From the IMG/VR virus record IMGVR_UViG_2939162341_000002: 37,948 nucleotides of DNA; one strand, 5' to 3'. Origin of the DNA: a virus. Its lineage: Duplodnaviria > Heunggongvirae > Uroviricota > Caudoviricetes. Below the pieces are notes generated by a model that saw nothing but the letters and a program-made list of their open reading frames with translations, was not told the origin of the DNA and made no database searches. The position numbers and the translations under genes were made by a program. Every line of letters starts with the position of its first letter. Position 1 is the stretch's first letter. Shown here piece by piece: positions 1,659 through 26,409 of this stretch.

Positions 1659-3587
1659 TTAAGAATCAGCCTGACTCGGGATCAGTTTTTGCCAGATAAC
1701 TGAAACGTATTTTGCCTGGTAACGGGCGTCATCAAGTGCATTATGGCGCTCACCTTCGAATGGAATAGCCGTTCTGGCATCGAAGTCTATGGCTTTCCCC
1801 AGCTCAACGATTGTGCGTACATCGCGATCGTTGTAGTAACGCCACGGGCAGGGGATCCCCTGCCGTTCGTATGAACGGCGCAAAATCGTGTTGTCGAAGT
1901 TGGCTCCATTTCCCCAAACCTGAACAAAAAATTCACCGGAGTTTTCGTCGATAAATTCCCGCAATTGTAACAGTGCATCATCTAACGGGATTTCATCGGT
2001 CATAATGGCAGATTGCGATTCGCGTGATTGCTTAAGCCACCATTTAATGGTGTCCCGATCAATGACTCCGCCAGCAGTTTCCAGATCGATAGTCTTACTA
2101 AATTCCGGTCCCATATCTCCGGTTTGCGGATCGAAAAATATTGCACCTATTGAGATGATCGGGGCATCAGGATTTTTTCCCATGGTTTCAAGGTCGATCA
2201 TTAGATGGTCACACGTCCTGCTGGTGGATGTGATTTCGTGATGACCGTTCACCTTAATTGGGTGATCTGCCGTCTCGCCAGTTTCATTATCGCTATTGTG
2301 ATGCTGATTGCCGCCAGTGTTCTCCTTGTGTGGATGTTCAGCGCCTTCCATTTCCTCCGGATCATCTTCCTGAACTTCAACCTGATACTCTTCATCGAAT
2401 GTTTCTTGGTATGTTGCGTCGCCCATCACCGCGCCACAATCAGGGCAGTTGCCGCCGCCGGTCTGACCGCAGGCGGTGCAGGCTTTTTCCACTTCCTGGT
2501 GCGCCACTGGTTCAGGCTGTTTCGTTTCTGGCTCGTTTTGTAACGCATTTGGACTGTTTTGTTCCGCTTTTTGGTAGTTCCGTTCCGATTCATGCTGGTT
2601 CTGGTTCACAGAATCGCGGGTCTGGATCCCCTTAACCCATTTCGGATCATTCGGGTCACTAATCCCTTCAACAAATTCACCACGTGATGCAGCAAGCAAC
2701 TTATCGGCGTCAGGCTGGCTGATATTGGCTGCCTGCATAATTTTGTTTACTTCGTCAGCGGTAACTTTTATCGGCTCTGGTTGTTCTGAATCTTCAGCGG
2801 TATCTACATTTTGCGGTAAGCCCGTGTATGTGCCATTTTTTCGGGCAAAATATTCTTCTTTTGTGATTTCAGTGGCGCCAGCAGCCAGTGCCTTATCCAG
2901 ACCAGAAAGTTTGTTTGCGCGACCGTATTTTTCTCCGTCCTTATCTGCGAAGAGGAAATAGAACGGCCCCTCACGCTCTACAGATGGTTCAGCTTCCGGC
3001 GCGGTTTCATTTTTTGGGATATCAGATACCTCAGTTTCCACTGCATCAGTTTGTGTTTCTGATGACTGGAGAACATCAACAGTGCCCAGGTCTGTTTCTT
3101 CATTCTCAAACACGCCCTTTGTCGTCAGGTATTCGCAGATATATTTGTTCAGTGCTACGGGATCTTTGTGAATGTCGATCGGACGCTCACGGACAAGGCC
3201 AAAAATAGTTTGGCGGTCGTAGCGAAGGGCATCAGGCTGTTTGCGCATTGATGCCGAGATACGCTTCCAGTCTTCGCGGTCGTTGTCGATAACTTCTTTT
3301 TTTGCCCAGCGATGGATGCTGCCGTCAATGTTTCCGGCATCCACATCACCAGGCCAGAGAGCGTAGGCCAGTTCGTCATCCAGTGTTTTCCATGTCTGCT
3401 TGTATTCGCGATGAATGGCAGCAATGACCGGGCTGATTTTTCCTGTTGAATTTTCAGTGTACTGTTGATTGGCTCTGGCGCGGGCGAGATCAACAACAGA
3501 CGTGTATTTTCCGGTTTCCTTGCGTTCACCTTCGCGACGTTTTTTCCAGATGCGCATCTCTGCCTGAATTTCGGGTGATGCTGCCAA
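1659..3587 (-). CDS. Prophage exonuclease with C-terminal DnaQ-like 3'-5' exonuclease (DEDDh) domain; 5' end runs into IS1, so likely truncated or promoter-less
   Basis: C-terminal region has DEDDh-type motifs (MIDLETMG, NGANFDNTILRR, HNALDDARYQAKY); central CxxC...CxxC zinc-ribbon (CTACGQTGGGNCPDCGAV). The ORF-finder start (TTG) lies inside the IS1 terminal repeat, so the native 5' end is lost or displaced. Confidence 0.75.
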   Translation of the reverse strand: MAASPEIQAEMRIWKKRREGERKETGKYTSVVDLARARANQQYTENSTGKISPVIAAIHREYKQTWKTLDDELAYALWPGDVDAGNIDGSIHRWAKKEVIDNDREDWKRISASMRKQPDALRYDRQTIFGLVRERPIDIHKDPVALNKYICEYLTTKGVFENEETDLGTVDVLQSSETQTDAVETEVSDIPKNETAPEAEPSVEREGPFYFLFADKDGEKYGRANKLSGLDKALAAGATEITKEEYFARKNGTYTGLPQNVDTAEDSEQPEPIKVTADEVNKIMQAANISQPDADKLLAASRGEFVEGISDPNDPKWVKGIQTRDSVNQNQHESERNYQKAEQNSPNALQNEPETKQPEPVAHQEVEKACTACGQTGGGNCPDCGAVMGDATYQETFDEEYQVEVQEDDPEEMEGAEHPHKENTGGNQHHNSDNETGETADHPIKVNGHHEITSTSRTCDHLMIDLETMGKNPDAPIISIGAIFFDPQTGDMGPEFSKTIDLETAGGVIDRDTIKWWLKQSRESQSAIMTDEIPLDDALLQLREFIDENSGEFFVQVWGNGANFDNTILRRSYERQGIPCPWRYYNDRDVRTIVELGKAIDFDARTAIPFEGERHNALDDARYQAKYVSVIWQKLIPSQADS

Positions 3588-3628
3588 CTTACTGATTTAG
3601 TGTATGATGGTGTTTTTGAGGTGCTCCA

Positions 3629-3904
3629 GTGGCTTCTGTTTCTATCAGCTGTCCCTCCTGTTCAGCTACTGACGGGGTGGTGCGTAACGGCAAAAGCACC
3701 GCCGGACATCAGCGCTATCTCTGCTCTCACTGCCGTAAAACATGGCAACTGCAGTTCACTTACACCGCTTCTCAACCCGGTACGCACCAGAAAATCATTG
3801 ATATGGCCATGAATGGCGTTGGATGCCGGGCAACTGCCCGCATTATGGGCGTTGGCCTCAACACGATTTTACGTCACTTAAAAAACTCAGGCCGCAGTCG
3901 GTAA
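3629..3904 (+). CDS. insA: IS1 InsA
   Basis: 91-aa ORF with Cys-rich N-terminus ([28 protein letters not shown]), recognised as IS1 InsA from memory. Confidence 0.93.
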
Positions 3905-4326
3905 CCTCGCGCATACAACCGGGCAGCGATGTGATTGTCTGCGCTGAAATGGACGAACAGTGGGGCTACGTAGGTGCTAAATCACGTCAGCGCTGGCTGT
4001 TTTACGCGTATGACAGGATACGGAGGACGGTTGTGGCGCACGTCTTCGGTGAACGCACTCTGGCCACACTGGAGCGTCTTATGAGCCTGCTGTCGGCCTT
4101 TGACGTGGTGATATGGATGACGGATGGCTGGCCGCTGTATGAATCCCGCCTGAAGGGAAAGCTGCACGTAATCAGCAAGCGTTACACTCAGCGCATTGAG
4201 CGACATAATCTGAATCTGAGACAACATCTGGCAAGGCTGGGACGGAAGTCACTGTCGTTCTCAAAATCGGTGGAGCTGCATGACAAAGTCATCGGGCATT
4301 ATCTGAACATAAAACACTATCAGTAA
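3823..4326 (+). CDS. insB: IS1 InsB (transposase, made as InsAB' by -1 frameshift)
   Basis: 167-aa ORF overlapping the insA 3' end in the -1 frame, characteristic of IS1. Confidence 0.93.
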
Positions 4327-4387
4327 GTTGGAGTCATTACCGAATCGCAACGTAGTTATTATCATATAACAGCTTGTTTCCTGATTT

Positions 4388-4417
4388 AGCCAGCCTCCCC
4401 AAAGGCTGGTTTTTTTC
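4388..4417 (+). terminator. Rho-independent terminator (hairpin plus T7 run)
   Basis: AGCCAGCCT-CCCCAAA-AGGCTGG followed by TTTTTTT, directly right of IS1. Confidence 0.6.
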
Positions 4418-4444
4418 TAATAAGTATCATTTCGGGTGGGGATT

Positions 4445-4969
4445 TTATTGTTTAACCCATAATAGTTCATTGACATTGAATCCCAACTTTTGAGCGGTAC
4501 GCACATAGTCTGCTTTTACATTATCTGGAATAGTTTGGGTCCTTGCCAGAATCCATAGGTATTCTCTGTTCGGACCACTGACAAGAGCATACTTATACTC
4601 ATCATCCAGCTTGATTACATTATAGCCACCATAGAAGGGGCCAAAAAACGAAACTTTCAACGCTGCAGTTTTAGTATCTCCAGTAAAGTATGCTTTACCT
4701 TCGCTCTCGCTCCATTTGTTTTTCGTTGGATCGTATCCACGGTTAAGTACGCGAATCCCTCCGTCGTTCCGTTTTTCATAAGTAGCGCTGACCTGTTCCA
4801 GACCACGTTCGAACCAGTTCTCGAGGCGAGCTATTTCATACCATTTTCCGAGGTAGCGGTTGGCGTCAAAATTTGTAATCGGCTGCACACCTTTAGGTGG
4901 TGTCGGGGCCTTACATGCTATAAGAGTGAAAGAGAGTGCAATGCCAGTCAACACAGGCCATAACTTCAT
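4445..4969 (-). CDS. Outer-membrane lipoprotein of the bacterial lipocalin family (Blc-like paralog)
   Basis: 174 aa; lipoprotein signal peptide with lipobox (LIAC); lipocalin motifs shared with E. coli Blc as recalled (FDANRYLGKWYEIAR, GKAYFTG, ALKVSFFGPFYGGYNVI). Confidence 0.85.
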   Translation of the reverse strand: MKLWPVLTGIALSFTLIACKAPTPPKGVQPITNFDANRYLGKWYEIARLENWFERGLEQVSATYEKRNDGGIRVLNRGYDPTKNKWSESEGKAYFTGDTKTAALKVSFFGPFYGGYNVIKLDDEYKYALVSGPNREYLWILARTQTIPDNVKADYVRTAQKLGFNVNELLWVKQ

Positions 4970-5161
4970 AATAAATCCTGTACTTTTGATAGTTGAGAGT
5001 AAGTATGAAAGATAGATGAGTACGACCGATCACTTAAAGAACTTTCCTACTATATTAGGAATAGTCAATAACAGAAAAATTGTCAGTGATGAAGCCAGAA
5101 AGGCAATTTAGTCCGTGCACTACAAAGTTTATGTGTTAATGAATTAGTCAAGGGGGAGGAA

Positions 5162-6121
5162 ATGATAAAAAAACCTGTGATTGGGATCAGCGGTTGTTTG
5201 GGCGGTTCTGCTGTTCGTTTTGATGGTGGTCACAAAAGAGATGACTTTTTAATGGACAAATTAGTGGAATGGGTAACATTCAGACCAGTATGTCCGGAAA
5301 TGGCTATAGGGCTGCCAGTTCCGCGTCCTGCTCTACGACTTGTGCGCTCGAAGCAAGGAAATATACGGATGTGTTTCAGCCACGACCAGAATGAGGATGT
5401 GACAGAGAGAATGACAGAGTTTAGTCGTTCTTATATGGACAAATTAAAGGATGTATCGGGGTTTGTGGTTTGTGCTAAATCTCCCAGCTGTGGCATGGAG
5501 CGCGTGCGTGTCTATGGTGAAAATGGTAATCGAGGTCGTAAAGATGGAGTGGGACTATTTACGAGCACTTTGATGGAAAAGTTTTCCTGGCTACCGGTTG
5601 AAGAGGATGGGCGATTACATGATCCAGTGCTTCGTGAGAATTTTATTGAAAGAGTTTTTGCTTTGCATGAGCTCAATCACCTTTACAAGGAGAAATTATC
5701 AAGAAGAGAGTTATTAGCTTTTCATAGTCGTTATAAGCTTCAGTTGTTGGCGCATAGCCAGGCAGGCTATAAAGATATGGGACCATTTGTGGCTGCAATA
5801 CACGAGTGGGCGGACCTTGAATCATACTTTGAGGTGTATCGTGATAATCTGATGGCGATTCTCAGAAAACCAGCATCACGTAAAAATCACACGAATGTGC
5901 TGATGCATATACAGGGGTATTTTAGTAATTACTTAAGTACACGCCAGCGTAAAGAGTTGAGCGAGGTTATACTTAACTATCGCTTTGGCACATTGCCTCT
6001 TCTTGCGCCGTTGACTCTGCTGAAGCATTATCTGGGTGAGTATCCTAATGATTACTTGCTTACACAGAATTACTTCGATCCCTATCCGGAAGAACTGGCT
6101 CTAAGACTGATGGTGAATTAA
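5162..6121 (+). CDS. DUF523 (TudS-like thiouracil desulfidase fold) fused to DUF1722 (YbgA-like) protein
   Basis: N-terminal Cys motifs typical of DUF523 (GISGCLGG, VCPEMAIGLPVPRP, KSPSCG); C-terminal half resembles YbgA (NHTNVLMHIQGYF, LPLLAPLTLLKHYL); strong RBS AGGGGGAGGA 2 nt upstream of the ATG. Confidence 0.7.
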   Translation: MIKKPVIGISGCLGGSAVRFDGGHKRDDFLMDKLVEWVTFRPVCPEMAIGLPVPRPALRLVRSKQGNIRMCFSHDQNEDVTERMTEFSRSYMDKLKDVSGFVVCAKSPSCGMERVRVYGENGNRGRKDGVGLFTSTLMEKFSWLPVEEDGRLHDPVLRENFIERVFALHELNHLYKEKLSRRELLAFHSRYKLQLLAHSQAGYKDMGPFVAAIHEWADLESYFEVYRDNLMAILRKPASRKNHTNVLMHIQGYFSNYLSTRQRKELSEVILNYRFGTLPLLAPLTLLKHYLGEYPNDYLLTQNYFDPYPEELALRLMVN

Positions 6122-6527
6122 CTGTATGCGATATCATCTGAAAGTGATGAGTTCCTGTATGCAGGATATTTACAATCGTAAAAACTACGCTATGATGCTC
6201 ATAGTGTCAGTTTTTATAAAAATCCTGTTCACGCTAAAGAAAACATTGAGATGCAATTTAATGTTGGTAAACATACCAGCCCCAAACGATTTTATTCAAT
6301 CTGTTTTTATATGAAGATATTTCAAGTGAATATTAAGAGCATATAATATTATTATTGCACGCAGCTATTATAATATAACAGATTAGTTTAATGATTTGTT
6401 TTTTGTGAGTTAAACACATGGTTTTATAGTTGTGATGCAATGAGATTTTCCTTATTGTTGAACTGGCGAATATTGATTTTCCACCTATACTTACCTGGTG
6501 TAACCCCAATGATATCAGGTGGATAAT

Positions 6528-7241
6528 ATGCCATACATATGTTCTATCATTTTGGTGTTGAACTCGTTTGGTGTCCGAATTGGTAAAGAAGATATTTTGT
6601 TTAAAAAAGGAAATGCTGTCCTCATTGAATACAATTTAAAAGATCTTTTTTCGTCAAATACAGATCATCTAATGATCGTAGATGTTGAGGAGAAAACAGT
6701 TAATGATTTCTTTAAAAACTACACACTCTCACCTTTTTCTGTAAGAAGGTTTTATCCGTCATACTTGATAGTAGAATGTGAAGATTTTTCATTGTTAAAG
6801 AACTTGGTTGCATGCTTGAATTGTGATAGCAAAACCGTGGATGTAGTTAGAAATCAAATATCACTTGCATGTCTTGCTGTCTTATCTTCAGAGAAAATAG
6901 TGCAAAGTTTTTTGTTCGGAAGTCTTAATAACTTAGGTTGTAAAGTTAAGGCTATTATTCACTCGGATATCTCAGCGTCATGGAGACTTTGTGATATATC
7001 TTCAAGATTATATATGAGCGAGAGTTTGTTAAAAAGAAAATTAAAAGACGAAGGATTATCGTTTAGTAAATTAATTCTTGAAGAACGAATGATGATGGCG
7101 CAAAGATTATTGATCTACAGTAACCATACTGTCGGCAAGGTGGCGGGAATATGCGGGTATGACAATGCATCATATTTTGTAAGTGTTTTTAGAAGATATT
7201 TTGGTGTGCCTCCGCACCAATATTTATCAAGATTTTCTTAG
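6528..7241 (+). CDS. AraC/XylS-family transcriptional regulator (AppY/PatE-like), AT-rich
   Basis: C-terminal AraC-type HTH region (MAQRLLIYSNHTVGKVAGICGYDNASYFVSVFRRYFGVPPHQY); N-terminus resembles AppY-type prophage regulators; visibly AT-rich. ORF-finder start is GTG at 6519; ATG at 6528 has RBS AGGTGG. Confidence 0.8.
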   Translation: MPYICSIILVLNSFGVRIGKEDILFKKGNAVLIEYNLKDLFSSNTDHLMIVDVEEKTVNDFFKNYTLSPFSVRRFYPSYLIVECEDFSLLKNLVACLNCDSKTVDVVRNQISLACLAVLSSEKIVQSFLFGSLNNLGCKVKAIIHSDISASWRLCDISSRLYMSESLLKRKLKDEGLSFSKLILEERMMMAQRLLIYSNHTVGKVAGICGYDNASYFVSVFRRYFGVPPHQYLSRFS

Positions 7242-7310
7242 AAGATATGATGTGATGGTATTTTATAAAGTTATTTTTTGAAGTGTAAGATTATACGATA
7301 TTTTTAGCTA

Positions 7311-7340
7311 CGCCAGAATAATTGCTGGCGTTTTTCTTTT
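7311..7340 (+). terminator. Rho-independent terminator upstream of holin (tR'-like position)
   Basis: CGCCAG-AATAATTG-CTGGCG hairpin followed by TTTTTCTTTTT, about 90 bp upstream of the holin ATG. Confidence 0.55.
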
Positions 7341-7431
7341 TGAATAGATGTTCGGGCCTTACGCTAATGTAACTTCTTTCCTTCTTCGAACCAAACCGTG
7401 TACACCATCCGTTATCTGCGGAGGTGAGGCT

Positions 7432-7647
7432 ATGAAATCCATGGATAAGTTAACAACGGGCATCGCCTACAGCACCTCTGCAGGCAGTGCTGGCTACTGG
7501 TTTTTACAGTTGCTCGATAAAGTCACACCCTCACAGTGGGCGGCAATAGGTGTATTGGGTAGTCTGGTATTTGGCATGCTGACGTATCTGACAAACCTTT
7601 ATTTCAAGATTAAAGAAGACAGGCGTAAGGCTGCGAGAGGAGAGTAA
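7432..7647 (+). CDS. Class II holin (phage 21 / Stx-phage S type) with dual-start motif
   Basis: 71 aa from ATG at 7432 with RBS GGAGGTGAGG upstream; begins MKSMDK (Met1-Lys-Ser-Met4); two hydrophobic segments and a charged C-terminus ([13 protein letters not shown]). The ORF extends upstream to 7348 but that part lacks an RBS. Confidence 0.85.
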
Positions 7648-7651
7648 GACA

Positions 7652-7870
7652 ATGACTAAAAACTATGAACTGATTGTGAAAGGGACCCGCAATTTTGAGA
7701 ATAAAGTTACGGTAATCTTAACGTTACAGGACAAAGAACGTTTTGCCGGTGAAATTTTTGATCTGAACATCAACCTTGAGCGACTTGAAGGAGCTGGTTT
7801 GGATTATTATGAAGTTACTGCGGTAAAACATGCCAAACAGTTCTTGAGAGATTTGGCTGAAAAAATATAA
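7652..7870 (+). CDS. Hypothetical protein (72 aa) translationally coupled to holin
   Basis: ATG 4 nt after the holin stop; RBS AGAGGAGAG lies inside the holin 3' end; AT-rich; no recognisable domain. Confidence 0.5.
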   Translation: MTKNYELIVKGTRNFENKVTVILTLQDKERFAGEIFDLNINLERLEGAGLDYYEVTAVKHAKQFLRDLAEKI

Positions 7871-7888
7871 AGCGGCATTACTGCCGCT
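7871..7888. terminator. Bidirectional hairpin between convergent genes
   Basis: AGCGGCA-TTAC-TGCCGCT perfect 7-bp stem, A-rich on the left and T-containing on the right, between the stops of the convergent 72-aa and 98-aa genes. Confidence 0.55.
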
Positions 7889-7894
7889 TAGAAA

Positions 7895-8191
7895 TTATTC
7901 AATGTCTGGTAGCTTATCAAAGATTTCGGATACTCTTATATTTGTCATATAAGCAAATTGAGATTCTGCCAGCTCTTTGGGTGATTTTCCCGCTTTTTCT
8001 GAGCCAAAAATTGTTTCTAAAGCCAGCATGTTATATTTGAGAACCTCTTCTCGAGTTTTACCTGATAATTTTGCGGTAACAGCAATATAAAAAGGCAACA
8101 CTTTATCCAGAAGGTCGTTGTGTTTTGTCAGTTGTGGTAATACCACATCAAGTTGCTTACTGATTGGTTTGAATGGATCTATACCGTTCAT
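7895..8191 (-). CDS. Hypothetical protein (98 aa), transcribed opposite to the late operon
   Basis: Clean ATG start with upstream AAGGGA; 128-bp divergent intergenic region shared with the endolysin gene; no recognisable domain; predicted soluble. Confidence 0.5.
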   Translation of the reverse strand: MNGIDPFKPISKQLDVVLPQLTKHNDLLDKVLPFYIAVTAKLSGKTREEVLKYNMLALETIFGSEKAGKSPKELAESQFAYMTNIRVSEIFDKLPDIE

Positions 8192-8318
8192 AGTTACATT
8201 CCCTTATCAGAGGTAATCAGCCATCCCCCCTTTATTACACACGCCAGTATCCACCACTGACGGGCTGAGTGCTTAACATATCTAGAGATTAGAAACTGAT
8301 AAATCCTGATAAATATCC

Positions 8319-9346
<1,028 letters not shown>

Positions 9347-9709
9347 ATTAATATTAAATCGGATTATTTTTAGCGCTGAATGTGAAATTTAAATAAAAAG
9401 GACTCTTCCATGAGTCAAAATCCTTGAAATCTTAAGGGTAAGATAAAAGGTCATTAGACAGAATGACACGTTTTATTAATAAATAAAGCTATTGTTTCAT
9501 TCGTGTGTTTTTCTTTACAAAAGTAATCCTTGCTATGGTTGGTTAATCATGCGTTAATGGTGTTCTGGTTTGTTACAAAATTATCTGAAGCAGTCATTGT
9601 TATAATTTTATTATTTGTACCTCTTGAGATTTCCTTGTTGGTTTTTCTCTCTGATATTTTTTTTCGGACCATTCTGCCCAAGGGCTAACTTCTTCAAAAG
9701 GTAATAATG

Positions 9710-9922
9710 ATGTCTAACAAAATGACTGGTTTAGTGAAATGGTTTAACCCTGAAAAAGGTTTTGGTTTCATCACGCCGAAAGATGGTAGCAAAGATGTGT
9801 TTGTCCATTTCTCAGCTATTCAGAGCAACGATTTCAAAACGTTAACTGAGAATCAGGAAGTCGAATTTGGTATTGAGAACGGACCTAAAGGCCCCGCGGC
9901 TGTTCATGTTGTGGCACTTTGA
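9710..9922 (+). CDS. cspI: Cold-shock protein, CspA family (CspI-like)
   Basis: 70 aa; [38 protein letters not shown] matches CspA-family RNP motifs; roughly 360 bp upstream non-coding leader as in cold-shock genes. Confidence 0.9.
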
Positions 9923-10121
9923 GGTAGAAAATATTACAAACCATATTCACTTTAGATGCCCGTGTTGCCATGGTTCTCAGTATAGAACATCATCTTTTGA
10001 TGTTTCTGACAGGAATCCTTTCGGGGCAAAATGTATCTTTTGTAAATCAATGATGATTACATTTGATAATATTTCACAATACTTAAATGTTAGCCGTCTG
10101 TCGTTAGATTTAAGAAAGTGA
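9906..10121 (+). CDS. ynfN: Small Cys-rich protein (YnfN-like, Qin-type)
   Basis: Contains [19 protein letters not shown]...CIFCKS; the first in-frame ATG (9906) overlaps the cspI 3' end, so the true start is uncertain. Confidence 0.5.
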
Positions 10122-10127
10122 AAATGA

Positions 10128-10150
10128 AGGCTCCTTCGGGAGCTTTTTTG
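10128..10150 (+). terminator. Rho-independent terminator after the ynfN-like gene
   Basis: AGGCTCC-TTCG-GGAGCTT stem followed by TTTTTT. Confidence 0.6.
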
Positions 10151-10193
10151 CTTAGTGTCTAGTCGATGGATACTCACATATTACGGTAACATT

Positions 10194-10424
10194 ATGAAAA
10201 AAATAATAGTTTTTTTTAACTCTGAACCAGCAATGGTAGTGCCAGTGATGACCGGAGTTAACACCATCATGCGTGAATATCCAAATGGCGAAACAACACA
10301 CCTCACTGTAATGGCTGCAGGGTTTCCATCTCTGACCGGAGATCATAAAGTCATTTATGTAGCAGCGGATCGGCATGTAACTTCAGAAGAAATTCTGGAA
10401 GCAGCAATGAGACTCTTGAATTGA
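10194..10424 (+). CDS. Hypothetical small protein (76 aa from first ATG)
   Basis: ORF with ATG at 10194 (ORF-finder start is GTG at 10155); weak RBS; possibly related to Qin ynfO/ydfO-type genes but not confidently recognised. Confidence 0.4.
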   Translation: MKKIIVFFNSEPAMVVPVMTGVNTIMREYPNGETTHLTVMAAGFPSLTGDHKVIYVAADRHVTSEEILEAAMRLLN

Positions 10425-10596
10425 TTTGATTCTAATGCATTGATAATAAATGATAATCATCTTTATCTGTTTGTGTGAAATTTAGACCGTCGTATGTTGA
10501 TTATTGCGATGTTTCATCTTATCTTTTATACGCTTGCTCCATATAATTGACACTACTGTGTACCAGGAAAGTCATAACAGACTAAAAGAGGAAATG

Positions 10597-10770
10597 ATGA
10601 ACATTGAAGAGTTAAAAACAAAAACAGAAGCAGATATTTCTGAATATATAACAAAAAAAATCATTGAGCTTAAGAAAAAGACCGGGAAAGAAGTTACCAG
10701 TATCCAGTTTACTGCACGGGAAAAAATGACTGGTCTTGAAAGCTATGATATCAAGATTGATTTAATCTAG
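10597..10770 (+). CDS. gnsB: GnsA/GnsB family protein
   Basis: 57 aa (MNIEELKTKTEADISEYITKKIIELKKKTGKEVTSIQFTAREKMTGLESYDIKIDLI) matches GnsA/GnsB as recalled; RBS AAAGAGGAAA upstream; an extra ATG lies at 10594. Confidence 0.85.
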   Translation: MNIEELKTKTEADISEYITKKIIELKKKTGKEVTSIQFTAREKMTGLESYDIKIDLI

Positions 10771-11172
10771 TCTGTTTATAGCATTAGCATCAATTTCTCA
10801 TCAGATGCTATTCAACAATACAAATTACCCATAAACCTCGTTTTTACGGGGTTTTGTTATATTTAAACATTACCGAATAGGTATAAATCTCGATTGTCGA
10901 TGGTATTGGTTGTGTGACAATACCTAGTCTTTTCGGTATGCCTGAAGAGAATACAAACGACAGATTATGTAAGGGAAACGCGCTGAATCTTTCACTCTTT
11001 CATGCTGAGTGATTTGACGTTATATTTTTAGCCGTAAGTGAAGAGCAAACGCATGGAGCGACAAAATGCATAAAGATCAATACACTGATGCCCCCTCCCA
11101 GGAGCAGGTTCGTGTAAAAACTATGCTTAATAGCACCATTTCTGATCCTACCCACGTAATATGGACACAGGC

Positions 11173-12039
11173 CTAAGCGAGGTTCTTGTTTTCAAATTGT
11201 TCCGGACTGAGGCCGCCACACCAACTGTGCCGCCGCCACCGATTGTAATCACATTCGATATAATTAAACACCGTTGCCCGCATTATTTCCCGGCTGATAA
11301 AGTGTTCTCCATGGATACATTCCACTTTCAGCGAATGAAAGAAGCTTTCCACGCAGGCATTATCGTAGCAGCAACCTTTTGCGCTCATACTTCCACGCAG
11401 ATTATGCCGCTTCAGTTGCGCCTGATAATCTGCTGAACAGTACTGGCCTCCACGGTCCGTGTGAACGATAACGTTCCGGGGCCTCTTACGCCGCCACAGC
11501 GCCATCTGCAGGGCATCGCAGGCCAGTTGCGCCGTCATGCGTGGCGACATTGACCAGCCAATAACGGCACGTGACCACAGGTCAATGACCACTGCCAGAT
11601 ACAGCCAGCCTTCATCTGTACGTAAGTACGTGATGTCTCCTGCCCACTTCTGGTTCGGGCCACTGGCGTAAAAATCCTGCTCCAACAGATTTTCTGACAC
11701 AGGCAGGCCGTGTGCGCGGTAGCTGACCGGGCTGAACTTCCGGGAGGCCTTTGCCCTCAGTCCCTGACGGCGCAGGCTTGCCGCCACGGTTTTTACGTTA
11801 AAGGGGTAACCCTGAGCACGCAGTTCATCCGTCAGGCGTGGGGAACCGTAACGCTGTTTTGACCGGGTAAAAGCCGCGAGGACAACGCTGTCGCAGTGTT
11901 GGCGGAACTGCTGACGCGTGCTTATCCTTGTCCGCCGCTGACACCACGTATACCAGCCGCTGCGGGCCACCCGGAGCACGCGGCACATTGCTTTGATGCT
12001 GAACTCAGCCTGATGTTTTTCAATAAAGACATACTTCAT
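11173..12039 (-). CDS. insF: IS3 transposase OrfB (InsF, DDE integrase domain)
   Basis: 288-aa ORF recognised as IS3 InsF; overlaps orfA in the -1 frame as in IS3-family frameshift fusions. Confidence 0.93.
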
Positions 12040-12344
12040 TTCAGGCGCTTCGCGAAGTATGTCGCGGCCTTTTGGAGGATAGCCAGCTCTTCATCCCGTT
12101 CTGCCAGCTGGCGTTTGAGACGTGCAATCTCGGTAGACATCTCCAGTTCACGTTCAGAAGACGTCTGCTGATTTTGCTGTTTACTGCGCCAGTTGTAGAG
12201 TTGTGATTCATACAGGCTGAGTTCACGGGCTGCGGCAGTAACACCGATGCGTTCAGCAAGCTTCAGGGCTTCACTGCGAAATTCAGGCGAATGCTGTTTA
12301 CGGGGTTTTTTACTGGTTGATACTGTTTTTGTCATGTGAGTCAC
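12036..12344 (-). CDS. insE: IS3 transposase OrfA (InsE, HTH)
   Basis: ~100-aa ORF recognised as IS3 InsE ([32 protein letters not shown]...). Confidence 0.93.
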
Positions 12345-12401
12345 CTCTGACTGAGAGTTTACTCACTTAGCCGCGTGTCCACTATTGCTGGGTAAGATCA
12401 A

Positions 12402-12584
12402 AAGGCTGTCGTCCAGGTTCTGGAGACAATTCCGGATGTTCTTGAACGCGATTGCGCCCTGACTCCTCAGGCCGTTGGCGTTGTACAGCAGGCCATTGAT
12501 GACCTGCGATACACTCTTCAGGAAAAATCCTACGAGGCTTGTGCTGCTGAATTAATTCCTGATGAGGAAGGAGAGAGTCTCTAG
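12402..12584 (+). pseudogene. 3' remnant of the terminase small subunit gene, truncated by IS3
   Basis: Open frame starts exactly at the IS3 boundary with no start codon and ends in a TAATG stop/start overlap with the large terminase ATG, the usual small/large terminase coupling. Confidence 0.6.
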
Positions 12585-24961: not shown

Positions 24962-25660
24962 ATGCAGGATATTCCACAGGAAACACATCATGAGACGACA
25001 CGCCTCACTCAGTCAGCCCAGGTGGTGCTCTGGGAAATCGATCTGACAGTGGTCGGTGGAGAACGTTATTTTTTCTGTAATGAGCAGAATGAAAAAGGTG
25101 AGTCTGTCACCTGGCAGGGGCGACAGTATCAGGCGTATCCCATTCAGGGGACGGGATTTGAACTGAACGGCAAGGGCAGTGCTGCCCGTCCGACACTGAC
25201 GGTTTCTAACCTGCACGGCATGGTCACCGGGATGGCGGAAGACCTGCAGAGTCTGGTCGGAGGAACGGTGGTCCGGCGTAAGGTTTACGCCCGTTTTCTG
25301 GATGCGGTGAACTTCGTCAACGGAAACAGTGACGCCGATCCGGAGCAGGAGGTGATCAGCCGCTGGCGCATCGAGCAGTGCAGCGAACTGAGCGCGGTGA
25401 GTGCCTCTTTTGTACTGTCCACGCCGACGGAAACGGACGGTGCCGTTTTTCCGGGACGTATCATGCTGGCCAACACCTGCACCTGGACCTATCGCGGTGA
25501 TGAGTGCGGTTATCACGGTCCGGCGGTCGCGGATGAATATGATCAGCCGACGTCCGATATCACGAAGGATAAATGCAGCAAATGCCTGAGCGGCTGTAAG
25601 TTTCGCAATAACGTCGGCAACTTTGGCGGCTTCCTTTCCATTAACAAACTTTCGCAGTGA
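24962..25660 (+). CDS. Minor tail protein L
   Basis: 232 aa; near-identical in pattern to lambda L as recalled, including the C-terminal Cys cluster (CTWTYRGDECGY...CSKCLSGCKFRNN). Confidence 0.92.
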   Translation: MQDIPQETHHETTRLTQSAQVVLWEIDLTVVGGERYFFCNEQNEKGESVTWQGRQYQAYPIQGTGFELNGKGSAARPTLTVSNLHGMVTGMAEDLQSLVGGTVVRRKVYARFLDAVNFVNGNSDADPEQEVISRWRIEQCSELSAVSASFVLSTPTETDGAVFPGRIMLANTCTWTYRGDECGYHGPAVADEYDQPTSDITKDKCSKCLSGCKFRNNVGNFGGFLSINKLSQ

Positions 25661-26409
25661 ATCCCATGACAGAGACAGAATCAGCGATTCTGGCGCACGC
25701 CCGGCGATGTGCGCCAGCGGAGTCGTGCGGCTTCGTGGTGAGAACGCCGGAGGGGGAAAGATATTTTCCCTGCGTGAATATCTCCGGTGAGCCGGAGGAT
25801 TATTTCCGGATGGCTCCGGAGGACTGGCTGCAGGCAGAAATGCAGGGTGAGATTGTGGCGCTGGTCCACAGCCACCCCGGTGGTCTGCCCTGGCTGAGTG
25901 AGGCCGACCGGCGGCTGCAGGTGCAGAGTGATTTGCCGTGGTGACTGGTTTGCCGGGGGGCGATTCACAAGTTCCGCTGTGTGCCACATCTTTCCGGGCG
26001 GCGCTTTGAGCACGGGGTGACGGACTGTTACACGCTGTTCCGGGATGCTTACCATCTGGCGGGGATTGAGATGCCGGATTTTCATCGCGAGGATGACTGG
26101 TGGCGTAACGGTCAGAATCTCTATCTGGATAATCTGGAGGCCACAGGGCTGTATCAGGTGCCGTTGTCAGCGGCGCAGCCGGGCGATGTGCTGATGTGCT
26201 GTTTTGGTTCATCGGTGCCGAATCATGCCGCCATTTACTGTGGTGACAGCGAGCTGCTGCACCATATTCCTGAACAACTGAGCAAACGAGAGAGGTACAC
26301 CGACAAATGGCAGCGACGCACACACTCCCTCTGGCGTCACCGGGCATGGCACGCATCTGCCTTTACGGGGATTTACAACGATTTGGCCGCCGCATCGACC
26401 TTCGAGTGA
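25657..26409 (+). pseudogene. Tail tip assembly protein K (MPN/JAMM plus NlpC/P60 domains) interrupted by an in-frame TGA at 25942..25944
   Basis: The two ORF-finder pieces (25657..25944 and 25981..26409) are in the same frame. The upstream piece carries HSHPGG (JAMM); the downstream piece carries the Cys region (DCYTLF). The stop follows a Trp codon (PW*LVCRG), consistent with TGG to TGA. Confidence 0.8.

Follow-up and report, generated by a model that had tools for sequence, protein, structure and literature searches.

The hairpin upstream of the holin gene in a Q-less Qin-type prophage of Escherichia coli is very probably the terminator of an AraC-like cargo gene

Introduction

The closest described counterparts of the genes treated here are morons, a concept that reportedly goes back to Juhala et al. 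in 2000. Morons are found mainly in the late region of phage genomes, deviate from their surroundings in composition, and may carry a promoter and a terminator of their own (PMC8065619; PMC2920897). Examples are bor and lom of lambda, as well as stx and other cargo inserted between Q and S.

A Q-dependent late cassette consists of the Q gene, the promoter pR', a sigma-dependent pause element, and a terminator, after which the late genes follow, and Q blocks the formation of terminator hairpins (bioRxiv 10.1101/651190). The terminator of such a cassette, tR', lies immediately downstream of pR' (PMC7547250; PMC8065619); it is represented by the terminator of the lambda 6S RNA and by that of StxS in Stx phages (PMC7547250).

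The window, by which we mean the whole stretch of 37,948 nucleotides that was analyzed (IMG/VR record IMGVR_UViG_2939162341_000002), is a defective, decaying Qin-type lambdoid prophage of E. coli. The initial annotation placed a tR'-like hairpin upstream of its holin gene, found no Q, and suggested that some other factor is required for late transcription. Comparison with intact relatives makes a different explanation very probable, in which the hairpin at 7310-7341 is the terminator of an AraC-like cargo gene, Q was lost through an IS1-associated deletion, and the prophage is defective. The main value of the analysis is this correction: what appears to be an operon with a terminator and without an antiterminator is a defective prophage. 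The features of the region are listed in Table 1.

Table 1. Features between the early-left region and the end of the lysis cassette, with positions in the window
Feature	Position	Strand	Evidence or remarks
Early-left gene with 3'-5' exoribonuclease domain	1659..3573	-	PF16473; 5' end truncated by IS1
Complete IS1, 768 bp, intact ends	3574..4341 (locus L001, 7244-8011)	+	Marks the deletion
Predicted terminator at the tR' position, orphaned	4388..4416	+	9-bp stem AGCCAGCCT/AGGCTGGTT, loop CCCCAA, T7 run
Lipocalin Blc-like gene, first of the cassette	4445..4969	-	PF08212; NCBIfam Blc, E value 6.1e-94, above curated cutoff
YbgA-like gene, second of the cassette	5162..6121	+	2-Thiouracil desulfurase domain plus DUF1722; phrog_3275
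AT-rich region upstream of the AraC-like gene	6122..6527	+	About 29-30% GC
AraC-family regulator gene, last of the cassette	6528..7241	+	PF12833, PF00165; phrog_1450
Intrinsic-terminator-like hairpin and T-run	7310..7341	+	Stem 7310-7316 / 7325-7331, 8-nt loop
Holin leader with Shine-Dalgarno sequence GGAGGTGAGG	7401..7431	+	29/31 nt conserved
S21-type (class II, pinholin-type) holin gene, 71 aa	7432..7647	+	PF04971, E value 2.3e-34
Rest of lysis cassette	7652..9346	+	Pfam and PHROG matches, RefSeq annotation
Truncated ydfR/DUF1327 gene	7652-7870	+	Lysis cassette
98-aa insert ORF	7895-8191	-	Lysis cassette; phrog_25324
Lysozyme gene	8319-8852	+	Lysis cassette
Rz-like spanin gene	8849-9346	+	Lysis cassette

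Anatomy of the hairpin upstream of the holin gene

The 5' arm of the hairpin (ACGCCAG, 7310-7316) is separated by a loop of 8 nt (AATAATTG, 7317-7324) from the 3' arm (CTGGCGT, 7325-7331), and the T-run TTTTCTTTTT follows on the plus strand at 7332-7341. The stem is GC rich, with 5 GC pairs among its 7 bp. The hairpin has a folding energy of -11.3 kcal/mol (z = -2.1 relative to shuffled sequences, 10 of 200 of which fold as stably). It starts 68 nt after the stop of the AraC-like gene at 7241, and 90 nt separate the end of the T-run from the ATG of the holin gene at 7432; the element described in the initial annotation, a hairpin with a T-run about 90 bp before the holin gene, was thus recovered. 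The element is unidirectional, since no T-run follows the hairpin on the opposite strand. A sequence scan of positions 5000 to 9000 returned 8 terminator-like sites, compared with 2.4 ± 1.3 in shuffled sequences.

The first reading of this element was that it is tR', that a late promoter lies nearby, and that another factor, such as the adjacent AraC-family protein, replaces Q. Terminator anatomy on the late-gene strand, as expected of a tR', is indeed present 90 nt before the holin gene, in a window without Q. The same reading could draw on a weak promoter-like match at 7224-7251 (TTATCA-16-TATGAT, 9/12), the sole match found in a promoter search from the AraC stop to the hairpin. We do not find this match convincing, in agreement with the earlier failure to recognize a pR' by eye: promoter-like matches in the region numbered 8, against 11.6 expected by chance, and the match is not preserved in either of the diverged lineages with the hairpin, where a 9-nt indel interrupts it and -10 positions A2 and T6 are lost.

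Q and its terminator in intact relatives

The same region is carried by 12 isolated phage records and about 1,000 E. coli genomes. Positions 6100 to 8000 are 100% identical in many E. coli chromosomes and are common to isolated phages. Gene order is identical in phage IdasGreatGrand, the Lambda_2E9/1H12 group, E. coli B REL606, and E. coli HS, where an intergenic stretch of about 155 nt separates Q from blc on the minus strand, after which come the ybgA-like gene, the AraC-like gene, the hairpin, and the holin gene. Q of the intact relatives is a protein of 125 amino acids (PF06530; E value, 2.2e-51) and a remote relative of Q21, for which a structure has been solved (E value, 1.9e-8). In every relative examined, its gene precedes the holin gene by about 3.1 kb. 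The intact junction of Q and blc was found in 1,077 of 5,426 complete E. coli genomes, and the region before the holin gene was found in 989 to 1,072 of the same 5,426.

A comparison with the qut regions of related phages had been proposed at the outset; in the Q-to-holin regions of the relatives, Q and a distinct terminator lie upstream of the cargo. This second hairpin follows the Q stop by about 100 nt. It is the stronger of the two (-14.9 kcal/mol; z = -3.7; 0 of 200 shuffled sequences as good) and is identical in IdasGreatGrand, Lambda_2E9 (with a T8 run), REL606, and HS. Over the 3.9 kb from Q to the holin gene of an intact phage, exactly two terminator-like sites are found on the plus strand, namely, the post-Q hairpin and the hairpin before the holin gene. 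The literature defines tR' by its place immediately downstream of the pR' that adjoins Q. Under this definition, the counterpart of tR' in this lineage is the post-Q hairpin, whose copy at 4388-4416 is still present in the window.

What the hairpin before the holin gene has in common with tR' is its placement ahead of the lysis genes on the late strand, and in an intact phage it would likewise need to be read through by Q-modified polymerase. Unlike tR', it is not located beside Q and pR', is not the first terminator after pR', and has neither a promoter nor a pause element upstream. The tR' position that had been assigned to it is taken in the relatives by the terminator of Q itself. A terminator found before a holin gene should not be named tR' in annotations until Q and pR' have been located.

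Two pR' candidates were found after the Q stop of the relatives, TGGAGA-18-AATAAT (9/12) and TTGCTG-17-TAACAT (7/12, read by eye). Both are weak by consensus, and they are located in the 53 nt that are missing from the window or just before them. The T-A-x-x-x-T of the -10 of the TTGCTG-17-TAACAT candidate is kept in Lambda_2E9. The leader of the intact phage that is homologous to the stretch retained in the window yielded no promoter-like match.

Two -10-like sequences, TATTAT and TATAAC, are present at about 4357-4370 in the leader retained between IS1 and the post-Q hairpin, and they might serve as the sigma-dependent pause element for this type of Q. To our knowledge, their spacing to either candidate promoter matches no characterized Q system (lambda, 21, and 82). 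The post-Q hairpin itself gave only a subthreshold Rfam match (RF02278, 28.6 bits versus a gathering score of 50), which we treated as chance. It now lies directly downstream of IS1 and would meet any transcription reading out of that element.

The AraC-like gene ends at 7241, as stated in the initial annotation, which had also placed it in the position normally held by Q. This second part did not stand, since every intact copy examined contains the gene alongside Q. Because this is the case wherever the region is intact, the AraC-like gene is not a replacement for Q. AraC-family proteins are regulators of transcription initiation, and we know of none that acts as an antiterminator.

Loss of Q through an IS1-associated deletion

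Adjacent deletions mediated by IS1 and the decay of cryptic prophages, such as Qin, DLP12, and Rac of E. coli K-12, are well known. A tblastn search of the lineage's own Q against all six frames of the window gave a best E value of 0.41, and no antiterminator is listed in the RefSeq annotation of identical DNA from other strains. Q proteins of other families were excluded through annotations and Pfam scans. The earlier statement that the window has no Q-like ORF is therefore upheld. The ORFs toward the ends of the window encode an integrase, an excisionase, a truncated exonuclease-domain protein, Lom, a tail fiber, an invertase, and a host MFS transporter. The ORF at 3823-4326, which occupies the place of Q in IdasGreatGrand, was considered as the missing Q and rejected, as it encodes InsB of IS1; with the ORF at 3629-3904 it makes up InsA/InsB (Pfam and PHROG).

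The IS1 element is not flanked by a target-site duplication, the left flank being tgaatttcg and the right flank gaatcgcaa. The deletion is bounded on the left by the early-left gene, which RefSeq annotates as incomplete with a missing N terminus. On the other side of IS1, the sequence again matches four relatives from precisely 4342 onward; this first base after IS1 corresponds to a position 53 nt past their Q stop. The prophages of REL606 and HS occupy the same chromosomal locus as that of the window, next to rspAB; they are 98 to 99.7% identical to the window over 4342-7812 and still contain Q. In strain WCHEC050613, the left IS1 junction is identical, and the right junction is found at 5111 instead of 4342, with a further 769 bp gone, including the post-Q hairpin and blc. 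An IS1 without a duplication that joins noncontiguous prophage DNA, and nested deletions that share one end, are features of IS1 adjacent deletion, and we interpret the window and WCHEC050613 as carrying nested IS1 adjacent deletions within one lineage. The IS1 junction of the window was found in at least 13 of the 5,426 complete E. coli genomes.

The absence of Q from the window is explained by this IS1-associated deletion, in which the whole early region and Q were lost along with the segment behind Q that carries the likely late promoter. Of a Q-dependent late cassette, the window lacks the Q gene, and IS1 stands in place of the 53 nt behind the Q stop that contain both late promoter candidates in the relatives. 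The late operon of the window is thus most likely without a promoter and without an antiterminator, and since both promoter candidates are gone, it most likely yields no late transcript that would need rescuing. The need for a substitute factor that had been deduced for the late genes does not follow when Q and the promoter segment were lost together in an IS1-associated deletion. Given a mapped deletion that accounts for the missing Q, intact relatives that carry the AraC-like gene together with Q and have both Q and another terminator 3.1 kb upstream, and a promoter match that is no better than chance, we consider it extremely improbable that the hairpin before the holin gene is tR' and that another factor acts in place of Q.

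The prophage shares with known IS1 deletions and cryptic prophages an IS1 without duplication, one fixed and one variable junction between sister strains, the loss of regulatory and replication genes with retention of late genes, and the presence of further IS elements and pseudogenes. It differs in that this lineage keeps an almost complete structural gene set and is otherwise not unusual.

The AraC-like cargo cassette and its terminator

The three genes between the post-Q hairpin and the holin gene form a cargo cassette of which the first gene, blc, is antisense to late transcription. The AraC-like product has 237 amino acids from the RefSeq ATG at 6528; the ORF itself opens at a GTG at 6519. 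The nearest NCBIfam models of this protein are YdeO (E value, 4.9e-32), followed by GadX and HilD, with all scores far under the curated cutoffs (YdeO, 111 bits versus 348). Prophage-borne regulators of the AraC/XylS family have likewise been described as AppY of DLP12 (PMC10057817) and as PatE, PsrA, and PsrB of O157:H7 (PMC10877973). The AraC-like gene and PatE/Psr fall in the same YdeO/GadX/HilD neighborhood, a likeness drawn from family models.

The GC content is 29 to 34% over 6150-7350, compared with 40 to 52% in the holin, lysozyme, and spanin region, and the hairpin is placed where the AT-rich AraC-like segment ends. The AraC-like gene presumably has its own promoter in the AT-rich stretch that precedes it. 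Promoter-like sites are present there at 6169-6196 (TTTACA-16-TATGAT, 10/12) and at 6403-6430, and phage IdasGreatGrand has both hexamers of the 10/12 site unchanged (locus L002, 6069-6096); the number of such sites before the AraC-like gene is not above chance in either the window or IdasGreatGrand.

The phages that share the holin and do not contain the AraC-like gene have homology to the window that begins only at 7401-7414, which is 3' of the hairpin. The hairpin therefore travels with the AraC-like gene, and by this comparison it would belong to the AraC-like cargo and not to the holin. The slot between Q and the same holin holds other cargo in related phages, including cold-shock genes in PhiR42_1, where a Q gene is again found upstream of the slot, and different genes in mEp460_ev081. 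Such other cargo ends in terminator-like hairpins before the holin gene that are not homologous to the one described here; they are located about 110 nt upstream of the holin in mEp460_ev081 and about 40 nt upstream in an Stx2k phage, whose Q-to-holin interval contains 15 terminator-like sites versus 3.8 expected.

Like morons, the cassette is inserted between conserved phage genes, is replaced by other genes in related phages, and deviates in composition, being AT rich relative to its neighbors. It also resembles them in its late position between Q and the holin gene and in having a predicted factor-independent terminator on the coding strand downstream of the cargo gene, a feature recognized at the sequence level and conserved in three lineages. 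It differs from them in consisting of three genes, one of them antisense, instead of a single gene, and its own promoter is a predicted one.

We conclude that the element before the holin gene is very probably a previously unannotated yet ordinary cargo-gene terminator. The interval from Q to the holin gene is a 3-kb cargo slot in a widespread E. coli phage lineage, found in about a fifth of complete genomes, and a conserved terminator between an AraC-type regulator and a holin gene offers a small test case for the insulation of lysis genes from cargo expressed in the lysogen.

Distant homologs of the AraC-like protein, with 47% and 38% amino acid identity, are encoded in other cargo slots of lambdoid phages (loci L010, L012, and L011). 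The homologous gene of mEp332 and ev099 is found after the tail fiber assembly gene, near int, and that of phiSTEC1575-Stx2k is found between Q and the tRNA-stx2 genes. No canonical terminator was found directly after the homolog in mEp332 and ev099, and tRNA genes follow it in the Stx2k phage. The linkage to a terminator appears to hold for the present cassette and not for the whole family of AraC-like proteins.

Conservation of the hairpin

The interval 7100-7431 exists in three sequence lineages, with at least 99%, about 78%, and about 72.5% identity. Across these lineages, 30 to 31 of the 32 nt of the hairpin and T-run are identical, whereas the 68-nt spacer upstream is only 63 to 66% identical (Fisher test, P = 1e-4 to 1.5e-3). 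The stem does not vary between the three lineages, so that compensatory covariation speaks neither for nor against the hairpin, and the argument from conservation uses the contrast with the flanks instead, a contrast that phage mosaicism can mimic. In Lambda_2E9, an indel directly follows the T-run and the spacer before the hairpin has diverged, and 30 of the 32 nt of the hairpin and T-run are kept. In the comparison with IdasGreatGrand, high identity runs about 35 nt beyond the T-run.

These data bear on whether the hairpin might be a chance inverted repeat without function that owes its conservation to a recently exchanged mosaic segment. The modest z score, the stem without covariation, and the identity to IdasGreatGrand that extends past the T-run could be explained in this way. 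Such an origin is difficult to reconcile with Lambda_2E9, in which the element persists between a diverged spacer and an indel, or with the location of the element at a compositional boundary and gene end, on the correct strand, and with a T-run on that strand only. As analogous, nonhomologous hairpins also follow other cargo in the same slot, we judge a chance repeat to be highly unlikely.

Another view of the same conservation is that the hairpin serves as an RNA 3'-end element, which stabilizes the AraC-like mRNA or defines a small RNA derived from its 3' untranslated region (3'UTR), with termination as a side effect. A 68-nt 3'UTR ending in a hairpin has the shape of many 3'UTR-derived small RNAs, the hairpin and T-run are the best-conserved noncoding piece of the interval, and StxS provides a precedent for an Hfq-bound regulatory RNA that arises from a prophage late-region transcript and ends at a terminator (PMC7547250). 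Against this, the part of the 3'UTR before the hairpin, where a seed site would be expected, is the least conserved (63 to 66%), nothing points to a target, and an Rfam scan of 3400-12500 gave no match at 7242-7431 even at an E value of ≤1. A role of this kind would in any case be compatible with terminator function, and as an alternative to the cargo terminator we regard it as very unlikely.

Among the copies examined, the sole change in the stem was found in locus L007 (4106-4127), where the 3' arm has a 1-nt deletion and reads CGCGGCGT in place of CGCTGGCGT. Insertions of IS21 and IS5 have destroyed the AraC-like gene of this strain, and the observation is a single, anecdotal one.

Proposed transcription of the region

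The intact relatives are organized as Q, a presumed late promoter region, a short leader that ends at the post-Q terminator, the three-gene cargo, and the holin gene. In the lysogen, transcription of the AraC-like regulator gene probably starts in the AT-rich DNA before it, and the hairpin at 7310-7341 would likely stop cargo transcripts before they reach the holin and endolysin genes, thereby shielding the host from the lysis genes. After induction of an intact phage, Q-modified polymerase starting at the promoter 3 kb upstream would read through the post-Q terminator, the terminator before the holin gene, and all others. In the window, only the orphan post-Q terminator at 4388-4416 is left of the late control segment next to Q, and no replacement factor needs to be postulated.

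The cargo terminator might also be more than a passive stop, either by allowing a Q-independent trickle of holin and endolysin expression through partial read-through from the AraC promoter or by releasing the 3'UTR as a regulatory small RNA, for which the tR' of Stx phages sets the example. We assign such a role a very low probability. If it were true, the trickle of lysis gene expression would depend on host signals, in Q-less prophages or in lysogens with an active AraC-like promoter.

Lysis cassette and other lesions of the prophage

The holin gene is named essD in RefSeq, and its product begins with MKSMDK, in which MKSM is the dual-start motif of S21-type holins. The 98-aa ORF is a second insert within the lysis cassette, located between the shortened ydfR/DUF1327 gene and the lysozyme gene. 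It has its own predicted terminator on the minus strand (7889-7870 plus T-run), and its product gave no match in Pfam. The ydfR/DUF1327 product has 72 amino acids in the window and about 103 amino acids in PhiR42_1.

Farther downstream, an IS3-family element was found at about 11143-12405, between the gnsB region and the packaging genes. Beside it, in comparison with locus L001, an 897-bp deletion takes the 5' part of the DUF1441 packaging gene upstream of the large terminase gene. In strain T16R, the prophage is rearranged, and its late block is inverted between two IS3 copies. The gene for a gpK-like C40 peptidase tail protein (25657-26409) contains an in-frame stop (...LPW*LVC...), and RefSeq classes the identical gene, with its internal stop, as a pseudogene. 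The 5' UTR of cspI, a cold-shock gene of the prophage, contains a match at 9552-9968 that spans the full length of the cspA thermoregulator (RF01766; 109.8 bits versus a gathering score of 78).
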